Origin: Dictyostelium discoideum
Lineage: Eukaryota
NCBI GenBank assembly: GCA_000004695.1
Contig: CM000150.2
Span: forward strand, 896,001 to 960,000
Reading direction: 5' to 3'
DNA: 64,000 bases
Each line of letters starts with the position of its first letter. Positions within the stretch are counted from its first letter, which is position 1. Below, piece after piece: positions 9,813 to 33,405 of this stretch. Both the position numbers and the translations under genes were made by a program. The notes beneath the pieces are model-generated. The model was not told where the DNA came from. It searched no databases and was given only the letters and a program-made list of their open reading frames with translations.

Positions 9813-12316
9813 TTACTCTTTAATATTTTTAAAATCCCAAATCTTATTATCTCTTTGGCTATTTGGAAAATATTTATCATAAAGTTTTAAAGTTCTTTCA
9901 AATCTTTCTTTTTGGACTTCAATTGGGTCTAATATTGTTGTTGGATTACAGTTTAATATTATTGGTAATAACTTTTGAAATCTTTTATAATTATCCATAT
10001 CGACAATTAATGTATGCCAAAACATTTCAATTACATATGGTGCTTGCAATTTTGCTGATATTTCTCTTTCATTTTCAATACATGTATCATTATCTAAACA
10101 TTTTAAAATCATAAATCTTACAAATCTTGGAAATAAAAAAAAAAAAAAAAAAAAAAAAAAAAAAAAAAATTAATAAATTAAATTAAAAAAAAAGGGAATG
10201 AATGATAACTAAACTTACTCTTTTGTTAATTTAACACCAATTGATTCCATTTTCATTCTACATACAATGTTGAAAAAGTTAAACTAAAATAGTTTATTAT
10301 TTAATTTATTAGTTTTTTTTTCCAAATTATTATTTAAATAAATAAATAAATAAATAAATAAATAAATAAATAAATAAATACCCTATTTAAAATTTTCTTT
10401 TCCAATTCAATTGGATCAATAGGACCAAGATTTTTATTTTTGGTTTTAACTCTTTTATTGTTTTCGGTGTTGGCTTCAATAGATTCGATAACTACCGACA
10501 TTGGTTCAAATTCCACTTGTGAATTTGTTCTTTTTTTTCCGTTGATATGGTTTTTATTACTTTCATTATTTTCATTATTTTCATTATAAACATTATAAAC
10601 ATTATTATTATTATTATTATTATTATTATTATTATTATTATTATTATTATTATTATTATTATTATTATTATTATTATTATTATTATTATTATTATTATTA
10701 TTATTATTATTATTATTATTATTATTATTATTATTATTACTGTTATTATTATGTGAGTGAGAAAATGAAGCAAAATTATTATTATTACTTTTTTTAATAT
10801 CACTATCAATATTGTTATATTTGGTACTAGAACGATTATTACTTTCAATATTTAAATATTTATCTATACTATTATTACTGTTTTTATTTTTGTCTTTGTC
10901 ATTATCTTTATCAGTATCTTTTTCTCTTTCTCTTTCTTTTTCTTTTCCTTTTTTTTTTTCTTTTCCTTTTTCTTTTTCTTTTTCTTTTTCTTTTTCTTTT
11001 TCTTTTTCTTTTTCTTTTTCTTTTTCTTTTTCTTTTTCTTTTTCTTTTTCTCTTTCTTTTTCTCTTTCTTTTTCTTTTACTTTTTCTCGCTCTCTTTCTT
11101 TTTCTTTTTCCCTTTCTATTTCTCTTTCTCTTTCTCTTTCTATTTCTATTTCTATTTCTCTTTCTTTTTCTCTTTCTTTTTCTTTTTCTATTTCTCTTTC
11201 TATTTCTCTTTCTCTTTCTCTTTCTCTTTCTCTTTCTCTTTCTCTTTCTCTTTCTCTTTCTTTTTCTTTTTCTTTTTCTTTTTCTTTTTCTTTTTCTTTT
11301 TCTTTTTCTCTTTCTCTTTCTATTCCTATTCCCTTTTCTCTCTCTTTCTCTTTTTCTATTTCTTTTTCCTTTCTTTTATCACTTTTCTTTTGTCCACTCT
11401 GATCATTTTTGTCAATAACATTAGTTTCAAGATTAAAGGTTGTTATATCAATTGAATTTTTTGGAGAGGTTTGGTTTTTTTTTGATTCTAATTCTTGTGG
11501 TGGTCGTTTATTATTTTTATAAATTGGAAGAATCAATTTTAATGATGGAAAAGTGGGTGATGTTGTTGTTGTTGCTGTTGGAGTTGCTGTTGGAGTTGCT
11601 GTTGGAGTTGTTGGAGTTGTTGGAGTTGAAGTTGTAGTTATTGTTGTTGGAGTTGAGGTTGAAGCTAAAGTTGAAGTTGAAATTGTAGTAGAGGTTGTAG
11701 TTGAATTTTTATTTAAATCCCATGGATCATAATTTTTTAATAATGACCAATAATCCTTATATTCTAATTTACCTTGTTGAAATATTACTTGATGATTAAA
11801 TAAATAATTTGAAATCTCTTTTCTAAAAACTGAAATATGTTTGTTATCATCTGGATATAATATTAATCTCAATTGTTTGTGTAATATGATATAGTTTGAT
11901 ATAGCTTTAACATGAACATATTTTTCAAATCCAATTTGATGTTGTAAACAATGAATTGTTAATGATATATAATGGTACCAATCATTTGTAAATGTTGATT
12001 CTGTTTTCTTTTTTGACGATACTTTTTTTTGAAGTTGTGGTGGTAATGAACCGATAATACATAATTTACAATCACATGTCATCACTGGTACCATTGTTAT
12101 CAATAATGATTTTAATAATATTAATTGATCTCTAAGTGTTTTATCGGACTCGATTGGGGTACCTGTTGTTAATTTCTCTATTTCTTTCTTAATCTCTATA
12201 ATATCCATACCATCTGCATACTTTTTTTTTAACCAATATTGTCCATTGTCAACACTTTTGTTTTCATTAGTGCTGTCATTGATTTTATAAATTCTTATAT
12301 CATCTTTTATCTCCAT
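9813..12316 (-). CDS. Paralog family member 2, about 770 aa. Three exons, approximately 12316..10382, 10283..10219 and 10125..9813.
   Basis: ORF 10334..12316 carries IRIYKINDS..., CDCKLC and FQQGKLEYKDYWSL. Exon 1 ends ...ELEKKILNR|GTATTT. The 65-nt micro-exon FNFFNIVCRMKMESIGVKLTKE ends GA|GTAAGT. Acceptor ccaAG|A joins to (E)FVRFMILKCLDND...ERTLKLYDKYF...IWDFKNIKE (ORF 9813..10112), parallel to the other members. Confidence 0.55.
10900..11340 (-). repeat. Coding (TCTTTT/TCTCTT/TCTATT)n array giving an alternating E-K/E-R/E-I repeat of about 147 aa in family member 2.
   Basis: Protein segment KEKEIEKEKEREKGIGIEREREKEKEKEKEK...EREREREREREREREIEREIEKEKEREKEREIEIEIEREREREIEREKEKEREREKVKEKEREKEREKEKEKEKEK. 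The ER/K character fits a single-alpha-helix domain. Confidence 0.7.
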
Positions 12317-30751: not shown

Positions 30752-33405
30752 ATGATAAACTTAAGTATTTTACAGATTTACAATATTTCAGGACAAACAG
30801 TTTATAAAGTTAATGGAAAATGGATAGAAATAATGTCATTAGAACAATTGAAAGATGTAGTGAATCAATTGAATATTAGAAAGGAAAATGATGATAATGA
30901 TGATGATAATGATGATAATGATATAATCAATAGCTTTACAAGTCAAAACCAATTATTAGATTATATAATCAAAGAATTGGCAAAGAAAAAAGTAGTTCTT
31001 TTGAAACCTTATGAAGCATGCGACTGTTTATTATGTCAGAGTAGACCCAACTCCTTACCCTATATTGATACCTCTCAAAATTGGATAGAAAGAGTTAGAA
31101 TCATTCTATACTCAATGACAGATCACAGATTGAAATTACATCGTCAACATTTACAACAACAAAAACAAGAAGAAAAAGAATCGTCGTCATCATCGTCATC
31201 GTCACAAGCAAAAATAGAATCAGAAGAAAGTATTTTAAATAATGGTATTGCTACCAAAGATATTTATAAGTATATGGAACTTCATAATAGTATATTGGGT
31301 TTAGATATACAATATCAAAGTTATTGGAGAAAGTATGTACCAGAGAGAATAAAAAATAGAAAATACTTTGAAAAAGGTATCCTCACTGGTCATTATAAAC
31401 TAATAAATCCAAACGATAACCCATGGGATTCTAATTATGTATCAGCTGTCCCAATTCCTTCAAATTTTTATATATCACCACCTTTTCAACCTATTGATAG
31501 CGATCTTTATGATAATGGGATTTCAAAAAATACAACCTCATCATCATCTACATCTACATCATCAACAAACTCAATACCACCACCATCTTCTTCTTCTTCA
31601 TCATCGTCCTCTACAAGTAAAAAAATTAAAACAACAAATGAAAATAGTTTTTTATCAGAATCAGTACCATATTTTAATTATAGTGGTCCAAGTAATATTC
31701 ATCCATCTAAAAACAGTGATAAAATTAATGAATCTAATAATGGTAAAAAACTGTGTGGTGCACTTAGATCAAAAGGTGGTACATGTACAATACCATTTGA
31801 TAAATGTAGATATCACAATCAAGAAGTAATCAAAAGATTAGAGGAACGTAAAAAACAAAAAGAGGAAAATTCAAATAAATTTGGTTCTGGAAAAAAAAGA
31901 AAAAAGTCAAAATACAATAGTGAGAGTGAATCAGAAAGTGATAGTGAGAGAGATAGTGATATTGATTTCGATGACCATCACAATGAGCATAAAAAAAGTA
32001 AAATAAAAAATATTTCAAAAGAAAAAAAAAACTTATCATCAAACGAACACTCAGATAATGAAAAAGATGTAAATAGAAATAAAATAATTCAAACTCAATT
32101 ATTAGATAATAATAATAATAATAATAATAATAAAAATAATAATAATAATAATAATAAAAATAATAATAATGATAATAATAATAATAATAATAATAATAAT
32201 AATAATAATAATAATAATAATAATAATAATAATAATAATAATAATAATAATAATGGTGACGATGGTGAAAATGATAACAGCAAAAATATTATAAATGATA
32301 CCAATAAAAATATAAATGGCAATTCCAATGTTACGACATCAAATACAAATACCACAATAAAAGCGTTGTTTCCCTCAAAACCCACTAATTTATCAAAACC
32401 TTCTTCATCTTCTTCATCTTCTTCATCTTCTTCATCTTCTTCATCATCATCATCATCATCATCATCATCATCATCATCAACATCATCCTCATCACCATCA
32501 TCATCAACATCAACATCATCTTCATCACCATCATCATCAACATCAACATCATCATCATCATCATCATCATCATCATCATCATCATCATCATCATCATCAT
32601 CATCATCATCATCATCATCATCATCTTCTTCTTTACCATCCAAATCAACATCATCACCATCTCTAATACCATCATTATTAGTAAGGATACCTACAAATAT
32701 TCCTTCGTTATCTCGAATACCAGCAACTACAAACATTCCAAAAACCAATGTTCATACTGGTGGCATATCAAAGAAAAGAGAACTTGGTCTTGCAAAAGAT
32801 TTTGAAAAGTTTATTTTAAATCAATATAATTTCTTTAGTGTTTTAAATCAATTAGGTGATTTAGAAGAATTAGGTTATAAACTGTCAAAAGAGTATTTGT
32901 TATTATTGTTCATTATCATTATTATTATTATAACTCAAAAAAAAAAAGAGAAAATTATTACCACTATGCTATCCATCAATAATTTTCTCTTTTTTTTTAA
33001 AAAAAAAAAAAAATATATCCTAATTATATTTCTAATTACAAAATAAAAATAAAAAAAAATAGATACGTCAGGTTTATGTTGTTAAAGATGTTAGTTTCAA
33101 ATGAGGAAGGTAAAGATGAAGGAGGAATAAAATTAAAAGCTCCAGAAAAGATCCAGAAATTTTGGTTTCTTCATTACCATCAAAAAGAAAAGTATATAGA
33201 ATTTTGCCGCTTATTAATCATGAACAAACACAACTATCAGGTTTTTGAAGATTGTAAATTGAAAAGTATTATATTTTTTGAAACTCCAACAGATGACCAA
33301 AACAATAATAATATTGGTTACGAGAAAACCTACAAATTATATTTGGATATATTTGGTGGGTTTGGTTATAATGGTATTTGGGATCTTCCTATCGAATGTA
33401 AATAA
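30752..33405 (+). CDS. Paralog family member 5, about 827 aa. Two exons, approximately 30752..32892 and 33063..33405.
   Basis: LQIYNISGQTVYKVNGKW, CDCLLCQSRP, FEKGILTGHYKL and the knuckle KKLCGALRSKGGTCTIPFDKCRYH. Phase-2 intron KLSKE: GA|GTATTT...aaatag|A, then YVRFMLLKML...EKTYKLYLDIFGG...IWDLPIECK (ORF 33076..33405). Poly-S tract (TCA/TCT)n at 32400..32640. Confidence 0.55.

Follow-up and report, generated by a model that had tools for sequence, protein, structure and literature searches.

How do the members of one gene family come to be split by introns at different places within the same conserved domain? The question is raised by a 64,000-nucleotide (nt) stretch of the Dictyostelium discoideum genome (assembly GCA_000004695.1, contig CM000150.2, positions 896,001 to 960,000 of the forward strand; hereafter the window). 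Four of its genes, M1 to M4, encode proteins that end in a conserved C-terminal module, a distant relative of the GRDP-like domain. A first-pass annotation, made from the letters and their open reading frames (ORFs), had described nearly co-positional introns within this module, and attributed them to intron sliding or to gain and loss after duplication. We find ordinary introns at differing positions within one domain, a pattern that is probably due to paralogue-specific loss and gain and not to sliding. The earlier observation is partly confirmed and its interpretation partly supported.

The four gene models were rebuilt from the DNA, and each forms a single open coding sequence (CDS; Table 1). 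Without splicing, all four ORFs stop abruptly within the conserved module, a few codons into the introns (at 5951 in M1, 10334 in M2, 33046 in M3 and 46338 in M4). When the introns are removed, the pieces merge into single ORFs whose C-termini align across the whole module, and the proteins grow from 932, 660, 764 and 454 residues to 989, 770, 827 and 564 residues (M1 to M4). The earlier claim that ORF-only annotation truncates every member therefore holds. So does the assignment of the downstream exons to the same genes: splicing alone makes the domain continuous, and every junction is bridged by homologues that have no introns. For annotation, this means that spliced models are needed; ORF callers lose 57–110 C-terminal residues and half a conserved domain.

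All five introns start with GTA(A/T)(G/T)T and end with (T/A)AG, in agreement with the GT..AG rule. They are 93–170 nt long with a G+C content of 4–14%, compared to ~21–31% in those flanks that do not run into another intron. Stop codons are present in all three frames of every intron, and in three of the five introns the length is not divisible by three. In the Dictyostelium genome paper, introns typical of the genus are reported to be ~146 nt long with ~88% A+T. The M3 intron had been called essentially poly(A)/(T); its A+T content is 86% and its longest run 15, and it is not a homopolymer. T runs of 35 and 37 are found in M2 intron 2 and in the M4 intron, respectively. The phase and position of the M1 intron were given correctly, but the junction is PSPLID|LFWRTH and not LIDV|LFWRTH, the “V” being the GTA of the donor GTAAGT. 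Similarly, the extra phase-0 intron of M2 and the 65-nt exon that it creates are real, but the label “micro-exon” does not apply: micro-exon thresholds are usually ~27–51 nt, and this is a small exon above them. A tandem-duplication origin of the M4 intron was also considered; only a 7-mer was found in common, which is meaningless at 96% A+T. Judged by their sequence, the five features are ordinary U2-type GT-AG spliceosomal introns in the Dictyostelium style.

Table 1. Exons and introns of M1 to M4, other family-related features of the window, and intron positions in the module. Window positions count from its first letter; consensus positions count nt along the module alignment.
Feature	Position	Strand	Description
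M1 exon 1	3153..5915	+	CDCHLC/winged-helix-like module, low-complexity tracts, first half of GRDP-like module to ...PSPLID
M1 intron	5916..6023	+	108 nt, phase 0, GTAAGT..TTTTAG, 10% G+C
M1 exon 2	6024..6230	+	LFWRTH...IWALEL, then stop
M2 exon 1	10382..12316	-	ends ...ELEKKILNR
M2 intron 1	10284..10381	-	98 nt, phase 0 (ILNR|FNFF), GTATTT..TTTTAG, 6% G+C
M2 small internal exon	10219..10283	-	65 nt: FNFFNIVCRMKMESIGVKLTK + first two bases of Glu codon
M2 intron 2	10126..10218	-	93 nt, phase 2 in Glu codon of KLTKE|FVRF, GTAAGT..CCAAG
M2 exon 3	9813..10125	-	FVRFMILK...KNIKE, then stop
M3 exon 1	30752..32892	+	ends ...GYKLSK + first two bases of Glu codon
M3 intron	32893..33062	+	170 nt, phase 2 in Glu codon of KLSKE|YVRF, GTATTT..AAATAG, 14% G+C
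M3 exon 2	33063..33405	+	YVRFMLLK...PIECK, then stop
M4 exon 1	44974..46334	+	ends ...FEQY + first two bases of Gly codon
M4 intron	46335..46456	+	122 nt, phase 2 in Gly codon of FEQYG|YRLPRE, GTAATT..CTTTAG, 4% G+C
M4 exon 2	46457..46790	+	YRLPREFVRF...LLESND, then stop
Fifth, divergent module copy	7999..8409	+	mid-ORF 7471..9468, no intron
N-terminal-module-only gene	18771..22553	-	CNCELC form of CxCxLC module
N-terminal-module-only gene	28216..29787	-	CKCYLC form of CxCxLC module, plus CG..G..C..C.H motif
Intron position	consensus nt 47		P0005 (D. firmibasis)
Intron position	consensus nt 48		M2 clade
Intron position	consensus nt 95		M4 clade
Intron position	consensus nt 102		P0005 (D. firmibasis)
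Intron position	consensus nt 105		T. lacteum
Intron position	consensus nt 112		D. purpureum L007a, phase 1
Intron position	consensus nt 113		M2 clade and M3, phase 2
Intron position	consensus nt 189		two D. purpureum genes
Intron position	consensus nt 195		M1 clade
Intron position	consensus nt 198		D. purpureum P0013
Intron position	consensus nt 226		D. purpureum L005b
Intron position	consensus nt 238		D. purpureum L007a
Intron position	consensus nt 326		D. citrinum gene on L008

The same introns, with the coordinates and phases proposed in the first-pass annotation, were recovered by a homology-guided aligner, written for this purpose, that fits proteins to spliced DNA (BLOSUM62, GT..AG introns in any of the three phases). 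As queries it was given homologues without introns in their own genomes, P0008 and P0019 of D. purpureum and P0012 of D. citrinum, all of which are colinear across every junction. The M1 intron was recovered with P0008 and P0012, and the M3 intron with P0019 and P0008 (two of three queries each); the third query in each case picked another donor where the alignment is weak. Alternative GT/AG pairs near the junctions were rejected, as they delete or disrupt the conserved (Y/F)VRF or FW motifs.

Comparison with dictyostelid orthologues leads to the same junctions. The M1 junction is kept at the syntenic locus of D. citrinum, where the intron is 96 nt (a difference of 12 nt) and the gene has the same overall structure as M1 exon 1. 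The M2 junctions are likewise kept there, intron 1 being 67 nt long (a difference of 31 nt), and the counterpart of the 65-nt exon is exactly 65 nt long, 92% identical and gap-free. Within D. discoideum, the dispersed M2 paralogue P0004 also has both introns and a 65-nt exon. For M4, the junction is unchanged in D. firmibasis (116-nt intron) and in another D. discoideum assembly (78 nt). Across these orthologue comparisons, the exon flanks are 82–99% identical and gap-free, except for insertions and deletions (indels) upstream of M2 intron 1. The introns are 75–81% identical between species and differ in length by 12, 31, 2, 6 and 44 nt, with frame-breaking changes among these differences. The same splice sites appear in the independent annotations P0001, P0002 and P0004.

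Two details of the M4 orthologue in the other D. discoideum assembly are worth recording. Its intron (L002 4033..4110) is 78 nt compared to 122 nt in the window, and the difference appears to lie largely in the long T tract, since the aligned bases are 96% identical. Its annotation, P0001 (L002 3252..3921), removes three extra “introns” of 77, 127 and 193 nt, which in the window are in-frame, poly-Asn-rich coding sequence that includes part of the conserved CGGITKTGKPC motif. These are probably the result of over-splicing by the annotation pipeline.

The relations between the five introns bear on the question of sliding. M2 intron 2 and the M3 intron are located at an identical place, in phase 2 of a conserved Glu codon, and M2 intron 1 lies 65 nt upstream of M2 intron 2. 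The single intron in the M4 module is 18 nt (six codons, G-Y-R-L-P-R-E) upstream of the M2/M3 Glu position; it had been placed only one residue earlier, and the premise of nearly co-positional introns leaned partly on this mistake. The M1 intron falls 34 codons past the homologous Glu within M1, or 27 consensus columns (~82 nt) downstream. Hence the window genes differ by 18 nt and ~82 nt, and a 1-nt offset occurs in none of the pairs. Between the M4 and M2/M3 positions lie six residues (YRLPRE, YKLSKE, VKLTKE) that are homologous and gap-free in all copies, and the intronless P0008 has GYRISVE across the interval. The residues between the M1 position and the phase-0 positions of D. purpureum are also colinear, homologous and free of indels in all copies. 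Neither an exchange of coding and intron sequence nor compensating indels, as expected for longer shifts, were found. Since migration of both junctions over 6–18 nt would swap conserved codons for former intron sequence, sliding is unlikely to explain why the four window genes differ. The comparisons support the view that the differences among paralogues arose during diversification of the family, with each position fixed within its own orthologue lineage. Of the two processes proposed earlier, gain and loss agrees with these lineage-fixed, differing positions, while sliding does not agree with the colinear codons between them.

To place the window genes within the wider family, introns were mapped onto a 130-column consensus alignment of 24 module copies from 12 loci of D. 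discoideum, D. citrinum, D. firmibasis, D. purpureum and Tieghemostelium lacteum. The D. purpureum members were sampled in part (contigs GL871576.1, GL871411.1 and GL871407.1, here L005, L006 and L007). Introns occupy 13 positions (Table 1), and nine of the 24 copies are intronless in the module. The positions lie closer together than uniform placement predicts: seven of the 12 gaps are ≤7 nt (P=0.002, with the 7-nt threshold chosen post hoc), and the median gap is 7 nt (P=0.003). Three zones, at consensus nt 47–48, 95–113 and 189–198 and each ≤20 nt, fall at helix boundaries predicted by an AlphaFold model (H1/H2, H2/H3 and the start of H4). The chance that two independent introns coincide exactly in the ~390-nt module is ~1/390 per pair, or ~0.02 over nine between-gene pairs; thus, chance does not account for the position that M2 and M3 share. 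For the D. citrinum gene on L008, the aligner suggested a second, 60-nt “intron”, which was rejected, as it conflicts with the annotated CDS length and represents an in-frame insertion.

Two pairs that involve genes outside the window show an offset of one base with unchanged protein. P0005 of D. firmibasis contains two introns around a 55-nt small exon, comparable to the 65 nt of M2, and one junction is displaced by 1 nt (GG|A in P0005, AGG| in M2). The Glu-codon intron of the D. purpureum gene L007a is displaced by 1 nt from that of M2 and M3 (G|AA compared to GA|A). A neighbor-joining tree of the modules is star-like except for three clades, and for judging whether such introns are the same by descent, the intron sequences are too A+T-rich for cross-species alignment.

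The best-supported counterparts in D. discoideum and D. purpureum differ in their introns. M4 and P0008 form a clade with 86% bootstrap support, and P0008 is intronless. M3 and L007a are reciprocal best matches in their N-terminal regions and share specific motifs, and L007a adjoins a homologue of the window gene at 18771..22553; it is probably, though not proven to be, the M3 orthologue. Its Glu-codon intron is in phase 1 (AGA G|GT...AG|AA TAT), compared to phase 2 in M3, and it has a second module intron that is not present in M3. None of the four intron positions in these two pairs is common to both partners; genome-wide, the two species agree at ~76% of positions (6,432 conserved versus 2,058 discordant; PMC4683709). 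More generally, D. purpureum homologues of the window genes have introns elsewhere or none.

If paralogue-specific loss and gain is the correct reading, the losses probably took the reverse-transcriptase-mediated route documented for Dictyostelium, and the identical M2/M3 position would be due to shared ancestry or to repeated use of a preferred site. Intron turnover would be unusually high across the family, and concentrated in three short zones at helix boundaries of the predicted fold. We raise only tentatively the stronger proposal that the GRDP-like module is a true hot spot of intron turnover, with no sharing between the best-supported counterparts and a 1-nt phase shift in the probable orthologues M3 and L007a. 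If dense sampling confirmed it, the family would offer a natural series for one-base sliding and site-preferential gain in an intron-poor amoebozoan.

Several points weigh against loss and gain as the explanation. We infer splicing here only from sequence, homology and comparative conservation. For M3, homologous-protein searches for an orthologue from a close relative, using a module alignment and a chimeric, low-complexity-free M1–M3 query, gave no match. It is uncertain which D. purpureum genes are the orthologues of M1 and M2. The near-star tree does not yield the order of duplications, and hence does not separate gains from losses. Moreover, the clustering of positions and the two 1-nt offsets are also predicted by a few ancestral introns plus short-range relocation. 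In its full form, this alternative starts from an ancestor with two or three introns, one per zone, and invokes junction migration over 1–18 nt together with some losses. It would account for the similar two-intron structures of P0005 and M2 as well, and the offset between L007a and M2/M3 gains relevance if L007a is the M3 orthologue. One-base sliding is accepted as real but rare, and slides beyond 1 nt are without published support (PMC3488318). For shifts of 6–18 nt, the intervening codons are conserved and colinear in all copies, including the intronless ones. Many losses would still be required to explain the intronless copies, and the only 1-nt differences involve genes outside the window. 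We consider sliding an unlikely account of the family-wide pattern; its one-base form is a live possibility for L007a versus M2/M3 and for P0005 versus M2.

Alternatively, introns could have been inserted recurrently and independently at preferred sites, including the M2/M3 position, and none would date back to the family ancestor. In D. purpureum, the genes that probably correspond to M4 and M1 are intronless, as are several paralogues of other clades, the zones sit at helix boundaries, and putative gains have been reported in both species (PMC4683709). However, the exonic flanks have no common motif beyond a purine at −1, gains in Dictyostelium are much rarer than losses genome-wide (PMC4683709), and the same codon and phase in M2, P0004 and M3 are more simply explained by descent, which makes this scenario doubtful. 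It is highly improbable that the gene models are artefacts, i.e. that the downstream pieces are separate genes, pseudogene fragments or alternative 3′ exons and the proteins end at the ORF stops. Such an artefact would fit the ORF ends a few codons inside the proposed introns, but it would cut the domain amid conserved motifs in a sequence that is uninterrupted in intronless homologues. The downstream pieces have no start codons in context and, unlike the intervening DNA, are conserved as coding sequence across species; independent annotations also join them. Paralogue-specific loss and gain is, on this evidence, the reading that we favor.

Families with discordant introns, explained by repeated loss and gain, are known, for example the alpha-amylase genes (PMC3096672) and those in a survey of Dictyostelium (Ma et al. 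2015, PMC4683709), which reported 441 and 202 losses and 40 and 58 putative gains. Since the divergence of D. discoideum and D. purpureum ~400 million years ago, hundreds of reverse-transcriptase-mediated losses and tens of putative gains are documented (PMC4683709). The present case resembles these in that spliceosomal introns occupy different positions in homologous coding sequence, and that the positions are stable in close relatives but discordant between D. discoideum and D. purpureum. It differs from the survey in that the discordant positions are gathered in a single module of ~130 codons, in a family that is fast-evolving and lineage-specific and is apparently outside the survey's set of 1:1 orthologues (gene lists not compared). 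The two wider-family pairs resemble described cases of one-base sliding (Rogozin, Lyons-Weiler and Koonin 2000; Lehmann et al. 2010, PMC2891723; reviewed in PMC3488318) in that the coding sequence is unchanged, although common descent of the shifted introns is only putative. The differences of 18 nt and ~82 nt within the window exceed the supported range of sliding, and the intervening codons are conserved. As discordant positions and reverse-transcriptase-mediated loss are documented genome-wide in the genus, the phenomenon is already known, and the family is a new example that leaves current views unchallenged. The family-level clustering and the 1-nt shifts add modest interest, and the family, compact and well aligned, could be used to test models of how introns are lost, gained or slide in Amoebozoa.

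The proteins are only distantly related to characterized families. A Pfam search of the window proteins found no significant family, and no window module matched PF07173 even at E≤1. A profile of the five window modules, including the intronless copy in ORF 7471..9468, matches 614 proteins in a representative library, among them P0009 (E=5e-25) and P0100 (E=6e-8). Both of these match PF07173 in an overlapping region; the C-terminal module is therefore a divergent, distant relative of the GRDP-like/DUF1399 domain. The two share the motif pattern E(F/Y)xRFxxLK ... LxPSxxID/E xxW ... Y ... RYxxTLxLYxxxF ... IW (PF07173; Arabidopsis GRDP1/GRDP2, PMC4299439). In the window proteins, however, the usual W-H-x-H is replaced by F-W-x-x-x, the glycine-rich tail is absent, the partner domains are dictyostelid-specific, and PF07173 itself gives no score. 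The AlphaFold model of the module is a seven-helix bundle (predicted local distance difference test, pLDDT, 82); a sequence search of the PDB gave no match, and the module has no convincing solved relative.

Many of the profile-matched proteins carry ubiquitin-like domains. Many non-dictyostelid GRDP-like proteins (P0029–P0060) end with such a domain, with a tail of ...RLRGC or ...RLSGC compared to the canonical ...RLRGG. In the window, the last ~80 residues of the ORF at 17536..18612(+) resemble a ubiquitin/SUMO-like domain by eye, with no Pfam match at E≤1e-3.

The N-terminal CxCxLC module, which looks like a SAP-like, zinc and winged-helix unit, is common to M1–M4. A central CG..G..C..C.H motif is present in M1, M3 and M4 but not in M2. 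Two further genes of the window contain the N-terminal module only (Table 1): a GRDP-like C-terminal module was found neither within nor downstream of 18771..22553(-) and 28216..29787(-). The DNA downstream of 28216 codes for an unrelated reductase-like protein. The C-terminal region of ORF 7471..9468(+), which holds the fifth module copy, has a weak DUF4537 match (E=9e-6) that falls slightly short of the Pfam cut-off. In D. citrinum, the orthologue of this ORF is annotated as far shorter (P0016, 371 residues) and could not be mapped with GT-AG introns. An exact look-up of the four spliced proteins and three neighboring ORFs in a protein collection gave no match.

The window has a G+C content of ~20%. 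Its other products include a mitochondrial RNA polymerase, a Miro GTPase, and a coronin (47374..48711(-)) with 99.3% identity to the coronin of a D. discoideum assembly. The family had been described as tandem. It forms a loose cluster on both strands and no strict tandem array, since unrelated genes separate its members (at 13280..16284, 23584..26078, 34506..35570 and 43089..44156). The interspersed unrelated products are a DUF4419 protein, RRG7, a Tsr3-like ribosome biogenesis protein, the Miro GTPase and a MetE-like protein. The D. purpureum family is clustered as well, with at least 2–3 members per contig of 10–23 kilobases. As the gene adjoining L007a is homologous to the window gene at 18771..22553, the cluster is older than the split between D. 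discoideum and D. purpureum.

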